Source of the DNA: a virus
Lineage: Duplodnaviria > Heunggongvirae > Uroviricota > Caudoviricetes
IMG/VR virus record: IMGVR_UViG_2713896777_000020
Direction: 5' to 3' (one strand)
Length of the DNA: 8,593 nucleotides
Below, one piece after another: positions 2,022 to 8,382 of this stretch (position 1 is its first letter; each line of letters begins with the position of its first letter). Under the pieces are notes generated by a model. It had not been told where the DNA came from and did no database searches. It saw only the letters and a list, made by a program, of their open reading frames with translations. Both the position numbers and the translations under genes were made by a program.

Positions 2022-2146
2022 CAACAGAATCCTTCCAGATAAATAGCACTCCCCTGTTCGGGGTCCATCCCTCTTCTCCCTGCGCGCTACTTAAGTATTT
2101 TTGATTCTATTCCGGCGCCGTCCGGAACTTCAAACGCGTTGAAAAT

Positions 2147-2171
2147 AAAAACAAAAACCCGCCGAAGCGGG
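2147..2171 (-). terminator. Rho-independent terminator downstream of hok
   Basis: Plus strand aaaacaaaaa-cccgc-cgaa-gcggg; on the minus strand this is a GC stem-loop followed by a T-run. Confidence 0.6.
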
Positions 2172-2313
2172 TTAAGTGCGGGTGCGTNNNNNNNNNNNNN
2201 NNNNNNNNNNNNNNNNNNNNNNNNNNNNNNNNNNNNNNNNNNNNNNNNNNNNNNNNNNNNNNNNNNAAACAGATGACGATCAGGGCGATTAACATCGCCT
2301 TTTGCTGCTTCAT
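2172..2313 (-). CDS. hokD: Hok-family membrane toxin, interrupted by the N-gap (3' end not determinable)
   Basis: Minus-strand 2313-2267 translates MKQQKAMLIALIVIC, matching the remembered N-terminus of HokD/RelF (Gef/HokC is MKQHKAMIVALIVIC). AAGGAG 9 nt upstream of the ATG. Paralog assignment rests on 15 residues plus Qin-like neighbours. Confidence 0.6.
2188..2266. other. assembly gap (79 N) inside the hok CDS
   Basis: Run of N characters. Confidence 0.99.
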
Positions 2314-2505
2314 AGCCTGCTTCTCCTTGACCTTTCGGTCCGTAAGAGGCAATCTATATGTGACGAGCATATAGGGGCCTCACTTCGATTTATAGTCGGG
2401 TGGGGCTTTTATCTATCTGCCGTTGGTGTTCATGCCCGAGGCAGATAGCCTCAAGCACCCGCAGCAATCCTACTTAACTCTGCCGTTACAGCAAACCGTT
2501 TTCGC

Positions 2506-2529
2506 CCGATATGGGAATTCCCATATCGG
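2506..2529. repeat. perfect 24-bp palindrome CCGATATGGGAATTCCCATATCGG
   Basis: Checked base by base; identical to its reverse complement; centred on GAATTC; lies between the moron terminator and the hok start. Confidence 0.9.
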
Positions 2530-2614
2530 AATGAATTCAGTTCACCTGGCGAGGCTTAGCGTACAATTTTTTCCGTTTTGTGAGCTGCCCCTACATGCCG
2601 CTGGCGCGGCATCC

Positions 2615-2645
2615 GGAAAAAGAATCCACGTCCTGAAGGACGAGG
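2615..2645 (-). terminator. candidate intrinsic terminator downstream of the moron CDS
   Basis: Minus strand: cctcgtcc-ttca-ggacgtgg (7 of 8 bp paired) then attcttttt, immediately after the stop at 2649-2651. Confidence 0.45.
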
Positions 2646-2648
2646 ATG

Positions 2649-3407
2649 TCAAGTGCCTTTCCTGGTCCAGCCATATTTTTTGAATGCAGGCGCCGCTTCA
2701 TCGGTTTGTAGCCATTCTGCAAATCGACGGGTTTCATCATTTGCATCCTGACGTACTGTAATGTTCATATCACGCCATATCACGTAGTCTGGCGCTATTT
2801 CCACGACATCACCAATTTCTGGATTACTGGCTGCCCAGTCAGCCCAGGTTATCCAGACATCTGCTCCAGGCTGATTCTCAAGAGCCTTACGTGCAGTTCC
2901 GCTATTGGGCGCATATAAAATAATATTTTTTCGGATTGCGGCGACAGTTTCTATATTCCCTTTACGTCCGGCAATATCTTCCCAGACGCCAGTGCCTGAT
3001 GTATTACTGGTACCACCACCATCATTAACAATTACGCCAATCCCAGGTCTGGTCAGGTCGTCAATACTCCGGATATTTTTAGGATTACCTTTCTTTACCA
3101 GTAAAATACTTTTTCGCAGATAAAGAGGCTGAATATCTTTTTCACTGAAGCTGTCTTTATGGTCCCGAATGATAGCCAGAGCAGATTGTTCTGATGCGCC
3201 AAACAAGATATCTGCATTTTTTTTGGCATCTTCATTCCATTTGTTCTGTGGGCCGTAATGAACGTTCACTATAATACCTGTTTTTTCGGCATAAAGTTTG
3301 GCTGCATCAAGCAAGGCTGTATGCGGGCCACCAGGACCATACAGATTGATATCAGCATAAGCAGCAGAAGACAGGAATATTAAAAAACCTGCCATTATGT
3401 TCCTCAT
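2649..3407 (-). CDS. secreted ModA-like (molybdate/tungstate-type) periplasmic binding protein; orphan moron
   Basis: Track ORF, 252 aa. ATG at 3407 with AAGGAG about 7 nt upstream. N-terminus MRNIMAGFLIFLSSAAYA looks like a Sec signal peptide (AYA then D). ADILFGASEQ resembles ModA ADLFISADQ and the C-terminal FKKYGWT resembles ModA FKRYGFT. Region is AT-rich relative to the flanking phage genes. Confidence 0.8.
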   Translation of the reverse strand: MRNIMAGFLIFLSSAAYADINLYGPGGPHTALLDAAKLYAEKTGIIVNVHYGPQNKWNEDAKKNADILFGASEQSALAIIRDHKDSFSEKDIQPLYLRKSILLVKKGNPKNIRSIDDLTRPGIGVIVNDGGGTSNTSGTGVWEDIAGRKGNIETVAAIRKNIILYAPNSGTARKALENQPGADVWITWADWAASNPEIGDVVEIAPDYVIWRDMNITVRQDANDETRRFAEWLQTDEAAPAFKKYGWTRKGT

Positions 3408-3571
3408 AAAAAACTCCTTTTATTGGTTATCATGAAATAAAGTTATAAACACTACAAATAATATATATTACATCCAGATAAACTTATCCGACTTTACCTC
3501 GTGCATAGCTTGTTATTTAAAGTCAACAAAATAAGGAAAATTATACGCATATTGAAGAGTATAAACCTTAC

Positions 3572-3599
3572 ATGTTGATTACATTTTTGTAATCAACAT
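3572..3599. repeat. inverted repeat, 12-bp perfect arms ATGTTGATTACA / TGTAATCAACAT around TTTT
   Basis: Checked base by base; lies in the AT-rich region about 165-190 bp upstream of the moron start codon. Confidence 0.85.
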
Positions 3600-3662
3600 C
3601 CTGTTTGGAATAGCCAGCCTTTAATGGATAACTATTTCTGACAATGCAATGAGTATAATCAA

Positions 3663-4137
3663 GTCCATCTTCCACTGAGAATTAGAGGCGGCATGCTTTT
3701 TCCGGCTCTTGCCGGATATCCGTAATTGTCCATAATCTGCAGATTTATACCTTCTGCATGACCTGTCAGCGAAAATTTGTCCGGTGTTTCTACGGGAATG
3801 ACATCAAAAGTTACACGCACTCGCGTTACCGTGTAGACCTACTTTCCTGCACTTGCAAGATCACAGTGGTGTAACCGTAACAGGAATTTATTCTCTGGAC
3901 CGGCAGTAAATCCCTGAGTGGCGTGGTTCCCATATCAATTTCCCGCCAGGCAGCCTCCATTGCCAGCGTACAGGCTGGAGCCATGACCTGCCCTTTAAAT
4001 CTGGCCCGACCATCCCACCGGACGTGTTCTTCTCCCCTGAACTTAGGTACAGTCATCTCCAGTGGCACAAAAGTGTCAGCGCCATAATTTTTGACCATTA
4101 TCGCGCTACGGATATTTTGTTGACTGGTGAAAATCAC
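3663..4137 (-). pseudogene. possible degraded fimbrial-subunit-like remnant (two frames)
   Basis: Track ORF 3826..4137 contains RFKGQVMAPACTLAMEAAWREIDMG, with the same Cys-to-Gly spacing as FimA [24 protein letters not shown]. The next frame (3838-3663) reads ...TGHAEGINLQIMDNYG, compare FimA NVGVQILDRTG. No start or RBS; frames broken. Weak, motif-level only. Confidence 0.2.
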
Positions 4138-4412
4138 CCCGCAGAATCAGGCTTATTCCCTTAACCTGGGCTTTCATCCTGACCGCCGCCTCACTACGAC
4201 CAATCAGACTGCCGATGCATTTTACCTTCATTGTTAGTATCATGATTTCAGGCCTGCACCATCCGCTCATTGCCCGGACTTCCGACAAATCCCGGCAACC
4301 ATATCCCGGTGCTTGTTCAGCTCCCGCAGCGCGGCGCAGACTCGCTCCCACTTCTGGACATGATTCTTCGCCCTACGCAGTTCGCGATTTGCCATATGCA
4401 GCGATGGCAAAA

Positions 4413-5000
4413 TCAAATCATCTTCTCGCGTTGCAGTAAACGATGGCAGCGACTGCACAATGTCCGCCACAGTTTCTGTTTTAATATCTTCCTGTGTTGC
4501 ATCTTTCTGTACCGGTAACGAACACCGGCTGGCTGAGGAAAGGCTTTACCATCGGTTTCCGCTACCGATTCAACTTTCGGCTCTGCTGGTAAATTATCAC
4601 CTGGTATGCAGTAACGAATTTTACCGTTCTGGTTTACGCGAATCAGACGACCTTTGCTGATTGCCATTGCCAGCGTTGAAGCAACTTTGCGGGATGTTGT
4701 ACCGAACAGCGTAGCCAGTTCATCCGCCGTTTGTGGTCCGCGTTGTTCAATCGTCGCGGTTAAATCGCACTCTGAGATTTTCGCTTCTGTTGCCGTGGTG
4801 GTTTCTTCTGGCGCTGGCTGTTCCTGCTGAACGTTGTTATCAGCCACACGCCAGGTGTATACGCTTTTATCAACGAAGCCAGCCTTTTTCAGTTCCCACA
4901 GCTCGTTCAGTACTTCTTCACGACTGATATCAAGTCGCGCAGCCAGCTCTACCGACGTGGCTTTTCCCATCGCTTTCAGTGCGTCAAAAACAGTCTCCAT
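4413..5000 (-). CDS. phage protein with two winged-helix-like segments, in the ren position after P
   Basis: Track ORF; ATG at 5000 with GGAGG 7-8 nt upstream, 33 nt after the P-like stop. N-terminal [30 protein letters not shown] resembles a wHTH. The last 50 or so residues look low-quality, so the 3' end may be wrong. Confidence 0.55.
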
Positions 5001-5033: not shown

Positions 5034-5699
5034 TCAAACAAAACCAGCCGCTTTCCGGCGTTCATATTCCTGTTTCAGCAACTCAATTGGCGTTGGCCCC
5101 GACGGGCGTTTGGGGGCCGCCAGTTGTCGCCGGACTGGCGGAACGCTCAGGCCGTTACTAACATGCTTTGCCCATTTCGTCAGTTGCCGTTCTGCAAGCC
5201 GTTTTAATTCCCCTTCGGTCATCTGGCGCTCAATCCCCTTTGAACGCATCTCGAGGCAAATGTGATACAGCACAGGCTGAGACCACGGGTACTTATCACT
5301 TCCGTCGTATCGCCAGGACTCATTGCGCCAGCGGCGGTACTCCTCCATCACAGCATCCACCGTCAGACCGAATGGATTGGCTCCGCTTTTCGAAATCAGT
5401 GCCACAAACTCAGCCAGGTCCGGAGGCCATGTTTCACCCGCCCGGCAGCGGTCCATGCACTGGCGGCAGACCTGCCGGATTTGCTGCTCAGTCATCGCGC
5501 CAATCTGTGCAATCCAGAGCTTCGAAGGTGCGGCCCCGTTCTTCTGGATCCAGCGGTTCGAATAAACCACCCCCATGAGTTCCCACAGCTTCCAGGCCGT
5601 TTCCGTCGCTGATAAATCCGTTTTCACGTTCCCACTGCTCACGTGCTGCCCGAATTTCCTGAACTGCCCGTGATGCGGTGCCACCTGGTGCTGCTGCAT
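5034..5699 (-). CDS. lambda P-like replication protein (helicase loader)
   Basis: Track ORF, 221 aa. Blocks align with remembered lambda P: MTEQQ (P: TTMEQ), PDLAEFVAL (P: PGQFVAW), YPWSQPVLYHICLEMR (P: YPWKSNAHYWLVTNLY), TEGELKRLAERQL (P: TDAELRRKAADEL). Start uncertain because of overlap with the upstream ORF. Confidence 0.8.
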   Translation of the reverse strand: MQQHQVAPHHGQFRKFGQHVSSGNVKTDLSATETAWKLWELMGVVYSNRWIQKNGAAPSKLWIAQIGAMTEQQIRQVCRQCMDRCRAGETWPPDLAEFVALISKSGANPFGLTVDAVMEEYRRWRNESWRYDGSDKYPWSQPVLYHICLEMRSKGIERQMTEGELKRLAERQLTKWAKHVSNGLSVPPVRRQLAAPKRPSGPTPIELLKQEYERRKAAGFV

Positions 5700-6528
5700 G
5701 GTTTACCCCTTTGCTGACTGGTTTAACCTGCGCCCTGACGTGATTTACGTGACGGGCGAATTTCTGCTCCCACTGAATCTGCGTAAACACTTTCCCCTCC
5801 GCTGCCCAGTAGTCCCGGAAGGCGGCAAGTTCAGCAGGTGTAAATTCTGTCTCCGGCAAAGCCATCCCCCACAACGCAGCCCGTCGTCGAAAATCCCGTG
5901 ACGGATACCAGCTATCGCTCATCGGGAATTTTCCGATGGGTTCGCTCAGGCCATACAGGAATACAGGGGGGGCTGCCTGTAACGACAAAACTTCCTGCTC
6001 ACTGGTCGGAGCACTCTCGCGTGCGTTATGTGTGGGGTTTAGATCTTTGGGTTCCTTTGGGTTCCGTGATCCGTTTTTGGGTGTCTTTGATGGAAAATTT
6101 GGGTGTCTTTGGTTATTTTCCATGCAGCTAAGAGTTCTGTTTTTGGGTCTGTTTTGTGCTGAAACATAACCATTTTCGGTACTGTTTTTATTAACAGCAC
6201 CAATTTTACCCACCTTTAAAGACTCCCGTTTTTGGGTGTATTCAGGCTCGGCAACACTTTCTTCTACACCGATAAGTCGGTACACCACAATTTGCTTTGT
6301 TCTGCCTTTTCTCTCACCGGTATCAACAATTAACCCAATCTCCATCAGGTGTCGTAAGCTGTCCTGCACAGTCTTTTTGTTCAGTTCCGTTACTTCTGCC
6401 AGTGCAGATACAGACGGGTATGCACACAAATCGGCACCGCACATATCAGCAAGCCAGGTCAATACTGACTTACTGGATGAACTGCCGGTTTTCACCTTTT
6501 TAGCCCATCGTAGTGCATCGATACTCAT
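5488..6528 (-). CDS. lambda O-like replication initiator (N-terminal wHTH domain, Pro/Lys-rich linker, C-terminal domain)
   Basis: Track ORF 5488..6603; start more likely the internal ATG at 6528 (MSIDALRWAKK...) with AGGGG about 6 nt upstream. Position immediately upstream of the P-like gene; linker is encoded by the iteron repeats. Confidence 0.7.
   Translation of the reverse strand: MSIDALRWAKKVKTGSSSSKSVLTWLADMCGADLCAYPSVSALAEVTELNKKTVQDSLRHLMEIGLIVDTGERKGRTKQIVVYRLIGVEESVAEPEYTQKRESLKVGKIGAVNKNSTENGYVSAQNRPKNRTLSCMENNQRHPNFPSKTPKNGSRNPKEPKDLNPTHNARESAPTSEQEVLSLQAAPPVFLYGLSEPIGKFPMSDSWYPSRDFRRRAALWGMALPETEFTPAELAAFRDYWAAEGKVFTQIQWEQKFARHVNHVRAQVKPVSKGVNHAAAPGGTASRAVQEIRAAREQWERENGFISDGNGLEAVGTHGGGLFEPLDPEERGRTFEALDCTDWRDD
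6042..6240. repeat. iteron-like direct repeats plus AT-rich stretch: candidate phage replication origin inside the O-like gene
   Basis: Six copies of core TTTGGGT at 6046, 6056, 6076, 6098, 6142 and 6231 (the extended form GTTTTTGGGTGTCTTTG is seen at 6071-6089); AT-rich stretch about 6155-6225. Confidence 0.6.
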
Positions 6529-7051
6529 ACGAACCCCTGGCAGACATTTGTTTATCTGCAAAGTAATATTGGTATTGCTGACGATACGCGTGCTTGAAAG
6601 CAATAGCTTTTTCTATAAGCTCGTCAGTCTCACGTTCCACAACAACTGGATCCGCAAAAAGCAGCCCGGACTCCACCACATCGCCATATTCTTTGTTTAA
6701 CCCGGCGATCATGTACGTAATGCTTTTTCCGTCAGTAATTTCACAATACAATCTGAAATCGCTGATCCGGATAGCCTCCATAATTGCCGGAATCAGCGCC
6801 GTGAATTTGTCACGCTTATCTCTGGTGTCGATAGCTTTCCAGCGTTCGAATATCTTCACCCGGTTAACGCCCAGCGCCCGTTGATCAACCTCGCCATCAT
6901 TAAACGTGACGCGTTGAACATCGATGTTCGGGCGTTCTTTCAGAGCCCAGAATGCTTCCGTGATTAATATCGTCGCCTGCTCCTGTGTCATTCCTGGTCG
7001 GCATACACAGGTATCCAGAGCCTCACAAACCTGTTCAGTGGTGATTTTCAT
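6500..7051 (-). CDS. hypothetical early protein (183 aa), in the cII position after the cro-like gene
   Basis: Track ORF; ATG at 7051 overlaps the dicC stop by 17 nt. No family recognised. Confidence 0.6.
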   Translation of the reverse strand: MKITTEQVCEALDTCVCRPGMTQEQATILITEAFWALKERPNIDVQRVTFNDGEVDQRALGVNRVKIFERWKAIDTRDKRDKFTALIPAIMEAIRISDFRLYCEITDGKSITYMIAGLNKEYGDVVESGLLFADPVVVERETDELIEKAIAFKHAYRQQYQYYFADKQMSARGSYEYRCTTMG

Positions 7052-7874: not shown

Positions 7875-8088
7875 CTACTCATCAAGACACCGCACGGTGT
7901 TCTCAGCAAACAGTTCCGCTACCCGGCGTTAAGGGGAAGCAGAGGATTTCTCAGTGGGCGAAGTCAAACATCAGAATGGAAGGCGTCCAGGGATCAGCAA
8001 AGAAACAGCGATGGCGCTTTATATTGATATCAGCGCCATTGCCGGACAGGTAAGAGTTATCAGAGCGGTAACTAAGCGGTATGCGCCT

Positions 8089-8289
8089 TTACTTCAGAAA
8101 GTCTCTGGTGAGTGCACCGAAGATATTGTCAACGATTTCGTCATCGAACTGCGAGGACTCATCTTCAGTTACAAGGTGACCACAATTTTTGCAGATGGCT
8201 CCCGCGAAACTGTCAGAGCCATGCGGTTTAAAGGATGTGTCAAAGACTTCGCCACCACATTCTGGGCAAGAAAACTTGATTGTATTCAT
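8089..8289 (-). CDS. small zinc-ribbon protein (66 aa)
   Basis: Track ORF 8089..8295; likely start is the ATG at 8289-8287 with AGAGGA 8 nt upstream. Contains CPECG and CKNCG 20 residues apart, and an acidic tail. Competes with plus ORF 7954..8310. Confidence 0.5.
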   Translation of the reverse strand: MNTIKFSCPECGGEVFDTSFKPHGSDSFAGAICKNCGHLVTEDESSQFDDEIVDNIFGALTRDFLK

Positions 8290-8382
8290 AACCAATTTCC
8301 TCTCGAGTAACAGACCCCTCAGAGGATACCACCTCGCCTGACGTGGTTAAAAGCAGGCAGCGCTAACCACAAGGAGCCGACA

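Follow-up and report, generated by a model that had tools for sequence, protein, structure and literature searches.

The window, by which we mean the whole 8,593-nucleotide stretch analysed here, carries on its minus strand an ORF (2649..3407) with a 252-aa product that homology and modelling assign to the AcfC/PEB3 family of secreted proteins with a substrate-binding fold. The product was 100 % identical to RefSeq entry WP_001449026.1 ('AcfC family adhesin Paa'), and the exact protein cluster bears the same name. At the DNA level, hundreds of complete EHEC genomes were 100 % identical over 1.5–2.2 kb; their annotation reads 'paa: AcfC family adhesin Paa', and the gene adjoins hokD there. Phage records label it, in prophage PPompW, 'porcine attaching-effacing associated protein Paa/adherence factor'. 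Published adfO primers matched the window exactly at 3316-3333 (minus strand) and 2832-2851 (plus strand) and delimit a product of 502 bp in the window, compared with the published 501 bp. The published ckf forward primer matched exactly at 2350-2370. The window gene is paa (also called adfO or z2053), the gene of the 'porcine attaching-and-effacing associated' factor and an already-known virulence-associated gene of E. coli; no finding spoke against this identity. The initial annotation had stated that no characterised example of such a prophage-borne protein was known. This was wrong, as paa/adfO is a named adherence factor that has been studied experimentally.

The same gene has been described as Paa of porcine EPEC O45 and as AdfO (Z2053) on O-island 57 (CP-933O) of O157:H7 strain EDL933. 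The cassette shows no differences between these and the window, and the locus has the same neighbours, with hokD/ckf downstream and a fimbrial pseudogene upstream. Elsewhere in the prophage, the window copy is without the IS1203 insertion of strain PV15-279, and its DUF1627 gene carries a 1-bp deletion.

Following the RefSeq annotation of the identical locus, the type I toxin locus hokD ('ckf', z2054) and a sok-like region occupy 2107..2503 on the minus strand. The hokD ORF is partly replaced by a run of Ns (2188-2266); homology to K-12 hokD reaches 2327, and 2401-2503 matches the sokW region of phage 933W at 93 % identity. Directly upstream of paa lies the frameshifted remnant of a chaperone-usher fimbrial subunit (3659..4137, minus strand), which RefSeq describes as 'fimbrial protein, frameshifted; internal stop'. 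The remnant has 86 % DNA identity to an intact fimbrial subunit of strain A37 that matches Pfam Fimbrial. A Pfam search with the two fimbrial fragment ORFs gave no match, and their identity comes from DNA homology and the RefSeq annotation. In strain A37, the intact homologue adjoins pgtABC, which regulates phosphoglycerate transport. A connection of pgtABC with 3-phosphoglycerate, a ligand of PEB3, was considered and rejected: there is no paa gene at that A37 locus, and the proximity is therefore treated as coincidence.

Among complete E. coli genomes, paa was present in 577 of 5426. It is an accessory gene in E. coli and, as the initial annotation had supposed, not part of the ordinary chromosomal core. 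Its host element, variously called O-island 57, CP-933O or the ompW-integrated prophage, is a lambdoid prophage that occurs in O157:H7 and in further E. coli of the attaching-and-effacing or Shiga-toxin type. Work on the gene under its name goes back to about 1999–2003; it carries this name in RefSeq and is used as a routine PCR virulence marker and as an OI-57 marker for risk typing of Shiga-toxin E. coli. Since the cassette is the well-known paa/adfO, it is not a new find and has little weight as a discovery.

The mobile paa cassette was delimited at 2589..3601 (minus strand), the DNA common to the prophage copy and a copy on IncF plasmids (88.7 % identity). This shared E. coli segment measures ~1.0 kb and ends at a statistically unusual inverted repeat. 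The G+C content is 41.6 % in the cassette and 43.9 % in the CDS (GC3 0.35), compared with ~51 % in the flanking phage DNA. The slot has hokD on one side and the replication genes on the other, in a Qin-like lambdoid prophage. Homology to K-12 Qin extends up to position 2327, just upstream of where hokD starts, and begins again at 6772 on the dicC/dicA side. The break falls at the relE-relB slot, and paa therefore sits where Qin has relE-relB, upstream of hokD, which had been proposed before. In related prophages, the same slot holds relBE (K-12), QueH together with DUF977, or an ORF6N gene. These contents and the composition also sustain the earlier view of the gene as a moron: paa is a single-gene, compositionally distinct prophage moron in the early region. 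The cassette is found on non-phage replicons as well, and in other genera the gene occupies chromosomal, non-prophage sites.

The features that had originally been read from the cassette (ribosome-binding site, signal peptide, hairpin, AT-rich upstream region and 28-bp repeat) are all present, at or within about 30–50 bp of where they had been placed. A Shine-Dalgarno motif, AAGGAG, read from the sequence (3414..3419, minus strand), lies 6 nt before the ATG at 3407; in the upstream alignment, the copies from the IncF plasmid, from E. albertii and from Salmonella all keep AGGAG. At the other end of the gene, an intrinsic terminator (2617..2650, minus strand) has a core stem at 2642-2629, as located by the scan, which extends to 2650-2622 and overlaps the stop codon, with U5 directly after it at 2621-2617. 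Just past the terminator and near the downstream edge of the cassette, folding gave a second G+C hairpin of 7 bp (AUGCCGC gcca GCGGCAU; 2595..2612, minus strand). The stretch comprising both structures folds with −29.7 kcal/mol (z = −3.75), and both are kept in the plasmid copy of paa.

The AT-rich intergenic region upstream of the gene (3408..3658, minus strand; 27.9 % G+C) presumably holds the promoter and regulatory sites. A promoter consensus scan returned two sites, with 4.0 expected by chance. The sole minus-strand match (3681-3652) was rejected, as it falls within the terminal part of the fimbrial pseudogene and is no better than chance. On the minus strand, a perfect TATAAT near 3543-3548 was also rejected, as it has no acceptable −35 hexamer. 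Because the scan matches were no more than those expected by chance, we can only infer that paa has its own promoter; with its own ribosome-binding site and terminator, the gene is otherwise transcriptionally self-contained.

The inverted repeat of 28 bp (ATGTTGATTACA tttt TGTAATCAACAT; 3572..3599) is perfect, with 12-nt arms at 3572-3583 and 3588-3599 separated by 4 nt. Perfect arms of at least 12 were obtained in 0.2–0.4 % of first-order Markov simulations (chance probability ~0.002–0.004), and as RNA the repeat folds with −14.3 kcal/mol (z = −6.3). It lies at the upstream border of the DNA that the prophage cassette has in common with the plasmid-borne variant of paa, and the IncF copy keeps a 10-bp core of the arm. 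In the upstream alignment of seven homologues, only the two E. coli cassettes had the repeat; the regions upstream of the E. albertii, Salmonella, Yersinia, Enterobacter and Edwardsiella homologues lacked it. The repeat therefore belongs specifically to the E. coli cassette, and we rejected the idea of a conserved operator because it is missing from E. albertii and from the homologues of other genera. It may be an operator, a leader hairpin or a recombination scar.

The first 18 residues of Paa (3354..3407, minus strand) form a predicted Sec-type (type I) signal peptide, MRNIMAGFLIFLSSAAYA followed by D, with residues 3-12 as its hydrophobic core and an A-x-A motif for cleavage between AYA and D. 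Hydropathy and composition checks showed zero cysteines in the protein, which consequently has no lipobox. Crystallised mature PEB3 chains start at the residue aligned with Paa D19/I20, and residues 2-15 of the AlphaFold model of Paa (pLDDT 92.1) are a low-confidence helix. The mature protein would comprise 234 aa (25.8 kDa). Paa is thus predicted to be soluble and exported, to have a type I signal peptide and to lack a lipid or membrane anchor, in agreement with its original description as secreted.

A Pfam profile search with Paa matched SBP_bac_11 (E = 5.5e-34), and the PDB sequence matches over residues 11-248 were PEB3 (E = 1.2e-81) and AcfC (E = 3.5e-81); Paa shares ~52 % identity with C. 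jejuni PEB3 and with V. cholerae AcfC, both of which have solved structures. With Foldseek, the best structural match of the model was AcfC (4jb7; TM 0.90/0.97, rmsd 1.2 Å), and PEB3 aligned with TM 0.87-0.88/0.96 (3fj7: 0.88/0.96) and rmsd 1.4 Å. The periplasmic-binding fold that had been proposed from the sequence was borne out by the Pfam match and by AlphaFold/Foldseek, which point to class II. The model and the homology searches place Paa in the AcfC/PEB3/Paa family, with a class II periplasmic-binding-protein fold.

Across 34 aligned diverse family members, the loop S134-N135-T136-S137-G138-T139-G140 was invariant. It aligns with S136-G142 of PEB3, T136/S137 standing opposite PEB3 T138/S139. 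T136 and S137 are putative ligand-binding residues, by analogy with the T138A/S139A PEB3 reported by Min et al. 2009. PDB entry 3fir is the K135E mutant of PEB3, which agrees with that PEB3 numbering. The binding cleft in the family is sized for small molecules, the AcfC crystal containing D-aspartate and the PEB3 crystal phospholactate.

PEB3 of C. jejuni (2hxw, 3fir, 3fj7, 3fjg) resembles Paa in sequence (52 % identity), fold, signal-peptide architecture and the SNTSGTG loop, and it is likewise encoded without an adjoining ABC partner. Unlike Paa, it is the product of a chromosomal core gene and is N-glycosylated; PEB3 K135 corresponds to Paa T133. The ligand assigned to PEB3 is a phosphorylated C3 acid, whereas the literature searched gave no ligand for Paa. 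AcfC of V. cholerae (4jb7; ~52 % identity) is a periplasmic colonisation factor and, like Paa, is encoded on a mobile pathogenicity element. However, acfC belongs to the ToxT-regulated TCP island, where it lies downstream of the chemoreceptor gene acfB, and AcfC affects chemotaxis and not cell adhesion. In contrast, paa is a stand-alone prophage moron, and at the annotated locus of the identical genome there is no chemoreceptor gene nearby.

The description of paa as an orphan gene was upheld. The ORF list of the window contained no permease or ATPase partner. In a complete genome that is essentially identical, the 8 kb flanking the matched 1.5-kb stretch on each side had none either. A cognate permease/ATPase was also not evident in the contexts of 10 relatives across 9 genera, nor at the IncF plasmid copy. 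These contexts were from Edwardsiella, Francisella, Campylobacter, V. cholerae (TCP island), Aeromonas, Helicobacter, E. albertii, Salmonella (IncFII plasmid), Yersinia and Enterobacter. An ABC system in Enterobacter was dismissed as a partner, being ~690 bp away and having its own binding protein, as was an ABC operon in Edwardsiella, since a phosphatase gene and a traT gene in opposite orientation lie between it and the homologue. In the contexts surveyed, on prophage, plasmid and island, the orphan state is typical of the AcfC/PEB3/Paa family.

Mutant phenotypes link the gene to adherence. An adfO mutant was less adherent to HeLa cells and altered in the secretion of several proteins (PMC8565820), and paa mutants are also reported in the literature to adhere less to host cells. 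Induction of paa has been seen in the contents of the bovine rumen and rectum (PMC8524897). AcfC resides in the periplasm, has heparin, chondroitin sulfate and mucin as binding partners, and influences gut localisation as well as chemotaxis toward mucin; it has no effect on adhesion to cultured cells and has been proposed to act together with the adjoining chemoreceptor AcfB (PMC5976639). As AcfC does not influence adhesion to cultured cells, members of the family may differ in role. PEB3 binds phosphates of the 3-phosphoglycerate type and is described as a transporter component for such metabolites. The initial guess that the protein is a lysogenic-conversion factor fits this literature.

The name 'ModA-like', which the protein had first been given, is appropriate for the fold and not for the family. 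ModA proteins and sulfate-binding proteins were the next structural neighbours after PEB3 and AcfC. ModA structures 1wod and 6nio aligned with the Paa model at TM 0.71/0.77, rmsd 3.8 Å and 16–17 % identity; for ModA and Sbp/CysP overall, the values were TM ~0.7, rmsd ~4 Å and 14–18 % identity (ModA 14–17 %). Paa shares with them the class II periplasmic-binding-protein superfold and the general theme of oxyanion binding, but, unlike paa, their genes are accompanied by their own permease and ATPase genes. The modA model TIGR01256 reached 18.3 bits with a cut-off of 62.5, and models PRK03537 and PRK10677 reached 11.7–17.7 bits with cut-offs of 253–470. The sulfate/thiosulfate models also scored below their cut-offs (NF008022, 22.6 vs 288; TIGR00971, 21.5 vs 155.5; NF008106, 19 vs 308), and their matches to Paa were local, covering residues 93-146 only. 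With these scores below the NCBIfam cut-offs, membership in ModA or Sbp was rejected. Receptor masking or superinfection exclusion had also been suggested, and paa does lie in a part of the prophage that often harbours exclusion genes. However, no PADLOC family matched Paa at E <= 0.01, a search that an undescribed activity could still escape, and no supporting literature was found, so we rejected a defence or superinfection-exclusion function. The occurrence of the cassette on non-phage replicons and of the gene at chromosomal non-prophage sites implies that its role is not phage-specific. Taken together, it is very improbable that Paa is a molybdate/tungstate scavenger of the ModA type or serves the phage itself.

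Three further routes from ligand binding to adherence were weighed. We favour, with a probability of about 0.5, indirect periplasmic sensing or signalling by Paa in a manner similar to AcfC. A direct adhesin, with Paa at the surface binding sulfated host glycans (heparan/chondroitin sulfate, mucin) and tethering the bacteria early in attaching-and-effacing adhesion, is possible and clearly the less probable of these two. It would account for the lower HeLa adherence of adfO mutants, although their phenotype is pleiotropic (PMC8565820). Purified AcfC bound sulfated glycosaminoglycans and mucin in ELISA; however, AcfC fractionates to the periplasm and mediates no cultured-cell adhesion (PMC5976639). 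RefSeq and the literature still name Paa and PEB3 adhesins. Anti-Paa antibodies reportedly lowered A/E lesions in explants, in work of Batisson from 2003. Against direct binding, the sequence of Paa has a Sec signal only and no lipobox, cysteine, beta-barrel, autotransporter or fimbrial features for retention at the surface, and the family cleft is of small-molecule size. The pleiotropic phenotype and the lack of a surface anchor both count against a simple adhesin. Still less likely is nutrient capture, in which Paa would hand a phosphorylated or sulfated metabolite (e.g. 3-phosphoglycerate, the ligand proposed for PEB3) to a transporter with genes at another chromosomal site and so confer a metabolic benefit in colonisation. 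The description of PEB3 as a transporter component, the invariant ligand loop and the fold of ABC-type binding proteins are in its favour. The surveyed contexts with no adjoining permease/ATPase argue against it, and dependence on a specific partner is hard to square with a single-gene cassette that moves between prophage and plasmids. What is left of the probability after sensing and direct adhesion falls to nutrient capture or other roles.

In the mechanism that we propose overall, Paa would be exported via Sec, and its inter-domain cleft would bind a small anionic (sulfated or phosphorylated) ligand. Paa would feed no cognate ABC importer and would promote the intestinal adherence and colonisation of the lysogen. 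A more specific and rather doubtful version of the sensing route is that Paa, instead of being an adhesin, is a phage-delivered periplasmic sensor that binds an anion from the gut, for instance a phosphorylated C3 acid or a sulfated piece of mucin. Paa would then dock on a chemoreceptor or sensor kinase of the host and redirect the chemotaxis or secretion of the lysogen toward the epithelium, and the 28-bp repeat would be the operator of a yet-unknown regulator.

The AcfC/PEB3/Paa family presents a puzzle: its members have a small-molecule binding fold and no evident transporter partner in the surveyed contexts, yet they are associated with adherence and colonisation phenotypes. If the specific sensor model were true, paa would exemplify a prophage moron by which a signalling pathway of the host gains a new input, and the long-standing ambiguity between adhesin and binding protein in this family would be settled.

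With positions 2400-3900 of the window as a megablast query against the complete E. coli genomes (n=5426), 100%-identical matches were obtained in hundreds of O157:H7, O26, O103 and O111 strains, and the matching genomes annotate the gene as 'paa: AcfC family adhesin Paa'. At least 80% of the query was present in 577 of the 5426 genomes, so paa is accessory and not a core gene. The exact Paa protein represents a 616-member cluster also named AcfC family adhesin Paa, and among phage records the same DNA was found in prophage PPompW. According to a review of O-islands, adfO (z2053) of OI-57 is the O157:H7 homologue of Paa and is always accompanied by ckf (z2054), a phage killer-protein gene (PMC8565820). 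Published adfO primers (PMC4366395) matched perfectly at 3316-3333 (minus strand) and 2832-2851 (plus strand), with a product of 502 bp in the window compared with 501 bp as published, and the ckf forward primer from that study matched 2350-2370 (minus strand). We identify the gene as paa/adfO, an assignment that could hardly be firmer. The initial annotation had known of no characterised example; this claim of novelty fails because the gene is the long-known, named and studied paa/adfO.

The 252-aa ORF (2649-3407, minus strand) carries its own signals. An AAGGAG ribosome-binding site (3419-3414, minus strand) lies six bases 5' of the ATG. A terminator stem (2650-2622, minus strand) overlaps the stop codon and is directly followed by five U residues; 3' of it is a second G+C hairpin (2612-2595, minus strand), and the joint fold has -29.7 kcal/mol (z = -3.75). 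The N-terminus, MRNIMAGFLIFLSSAAYA followed by D, has a type I signal peptide layout (a single basic residue, a hydrophobic stretch and an A-x-A site), and since Paa contains no cysteine it is not a lipoprotein. These features agree with the export proposed previously, and Paa is predicted to be an exported, soluble protein of binding-protein fold that lacks an anchor. Upstream of paa, the region 3408-3658 has a G+C content of 27.9% and contains a perfect inverted repeat of 12 + 4 + 12 nt (3572-3599). A perfect arm of 12 nt occurred in 0.2-0.4% of Markov simulations; the cassette feature exceeds chance. All elements that the initial annotation had described at 2615-3650 (ORF, ribosome-binding site, signal peptide, hairpin, AT-rich upstream region and inverted repeat) were found. 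We also observed a 24-bp perfect palindrome, CCGATATGGGAATTCCCATATCGG, at 2506-2529, with the paa terminator on one side and the hok/sok regulatory region on the other; the folding energy of its RNA is -18.3 kcal/mol (z = -5.1), and no T-run follows the palindrome.

In the reference strain PV15-279, the locus order is a DUF968 gene, two small genes, hokD, paa, a frameshifted fimbrial gene and a DUF1627 gene, beyond which lie P and O-like replication genes, ydaT, cro-like and dicA-like repressor genes, ydfC and dicB. The paa-bearing prophage is a lambdoid one of the Qin type. Homology to K-12 Qin spans the DUF968 gene, rem and hokD up to position 2327 and returns at 6772 on the dicC/dicA side. 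Directly upstream of hokD, Qin carries relE-relB, and the earlier statement that paa sits in the relBE position was therefore right. The same slot in related prophages holds QueH and a DUF977 gene, or an ORF6N gene.

A diverged paa copy (DNA 86-89% identical, protein 92%) was found on IncF plasmids, most of which come from porcine E. coli, with unrelated genes on both sides. The DNA common to the prophage and plasmid copies (2589-3601) nearly equals the interval chosen in the initial annotation. At its upstream edge lies the inverted repeat, of which a 10-bp core is kept in the plasmid copy. In an alignment of upstream regions, this repeat was not found 5' of the homologues in E. albertii, Salmonella, Yersinia, Enterobacter and Edwardsiella; it may be an operator, a leader hairpin or a recombination scar. 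The E. albertii, Salmonella and Yersinia homologues (loci L015, L016 and L018; 83-87% identity) occupy very different locations and have a common upstream motif that is distinct from the E. coli cassette. With a coding sequence of 43.9% G+C (GC3 0.35) compared with ~51% in the flanking phage genes, and other cargo in its slot elsewhere, paa is a self-contained moron, an autonomous cargo gene, as had been proposed.

Directly 5' of paa in the prophage, a chaperone-usher fimbrial subunit gene survives as a frameshifted remnant (3659-4137, minus strand), which is 86% identical to the intact subunit in a chromosomal fimbrial operon of strain A37 that adjoins pgtABC. The Yersinia homologue, which adjoins a Peptidase_M91 (NleD-like) gene, likewise has a fimbrial operon alongside. 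Such surroundings are a possible hint at a fimbrial or adhesion island as the source from which paa was captured.

Other observations concern the remainder of the window. A 50-N run (984-1033) separates 565-983 and 1034-1452, which are copies of each other (88.5% identical), both from the DUF968 gene; identity to the reference prophage is only 92% for the former and 99.9% for the latter. The segment 565-1452 looks like a scaffold join, in which two paralogous copies of the prophage meet, and not like a true tandem duplication. A 79-N run (2188-2266) stands for 163 bp of hokD/ckf in the identical reference locus, so that the hok ORF is only partly readable. Compared with PV15-279, the DUF1627 gene (4267-5000, minus strand) has a 1-bp deletion at ~4520 that yields two ORFs (4413-5000 and 4267-4470); the frameshift is either genuine or an artefact of sequencing. 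IS1203, inserted in the O-like (DnaT-domain) replication gene of the reference strain, is absent from the window (junction 5769-5771), where the ORF (5488-6603, minus strand; 371 aa) is intact; this prophage copy is thus less decayed at that site. Two overlapping antisense ORFs each match a phage protein family: the annotated 8011-8310 (plus strand; phrog_21318, 2.4e-67) and 8089-8295 (minus strand; 68 aa with two CxxC motifs, zinc-ribbon-like; phrog_4852, 5.5e-10).

Pfam assigned Paa to SBP_bac_11 (5.5e-34). Among solved structures, C. jejuni PEB3 (1.2e-81) and V. cholerae AcfC (3.5e-81) matched over almost its full length, and sulfate-binding proteins at ~1e-4 only. An AlphaFold model built from an alignment of 34 diverse homologues (mean pLDDT 92.1) superposed on AcfC (4jb7) at 1.2 Å (TM 0.90/0.97) and on PEB3 at 1.4-1.7 Å. 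ModA proteins were the next structural matches (TM ~0.7, rmsd ~4 Å, identity 14-17%), ahead of sulfate-binding proteins. Sequence and model together place Paa in the AcfC/PEB3/Paa family and not in ModA. The 'ModA-like fold' of the initial annotation holds at the superfold level but not as a family, since the NCBIfam molybdate- and sulfate-binding models gave 12-23 bits against cut-offs of 62-470. The loop S134-N135-T136-S137-G138-T139-G140 was invariant in 34/34 aligned family members and aligns with PEB3 S136-G142, including the T138/S139 pair. In work by Min et al. in 2009, this pair is said to have been required for binding of 3-phosphoglycerate and PEP; the PEB3 K135E mutant entry (3fir) is consistent with this numbering. 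The putative small-molecule pocket of Paa is conserved.

The gene had also been described as an orphan. We examined the surroundings of family members in Edwardsiella, Francisella, Campylobacter (adjoining cdtABC), V. cholerae (following toxT within the TCP island), Aeromonas (an island that also carries alpA and faeA), Enterobacter, Helicobacter, E. albertii (within the N-acetylgalactosamine PTS (aga) cluster), Salmonella (on an IncFII plasmid, with hok and a pyocin_S-domain gene in the vicinity) and Yersinia. No cognate permease or ATPase gene was found beside the family member in any of these 10 contexts, and no transporter partner at the IncF plasmid copy; the sole nearby ABC operon (Enterobacter) lies ~690 bp away and has its own binding protein. 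Orphan status holds, but as a trait usual for the family.

HeLa adherence is poor in an O157:H7 adfO mutant, which also produces and secretes several proteins differently (PMC8565820), in line with the earlier suggestion of a lysogenic-conversion factor. Bovine rumen and rectal contents induce EHEC paa (PMC8524897). AcfC was periplasmic on fractionation, binds sulfated glycosaminoglycans and mucin, has no part in adhesion to cultured cells, and influences mucin chemotaxis and distribution in the rabbit gut (PMC5976639). For peb3, a role as transporter component for 3-phosphoglycerate-type metabolites has been described, and chick colonisation requires it (PMC12469816).

We infer that Paa, once exported, binds a sulfated or phosphorylated anion and that this binding promotes colonisation. 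As the protein lacks any feature that would keep it on the surface, and as the mutant is affected pleiotropically, we favour indirect periplasmic sensing as the role of Paa (probability about 0.5) over direct adhesion and nutrient capture. The same two points count against Paa being itself the adhesin that its name and the HeLa phenotype suggest, a reading we hold to be possible but less likely. A nutrient-capture binding protein, as described for peb3, appears improbable. Molybdate scavenging, with the molybdate models so far under their cut-offs, and phage exclusion, with no PADLOC defence match for Paa, are both very unlikely.
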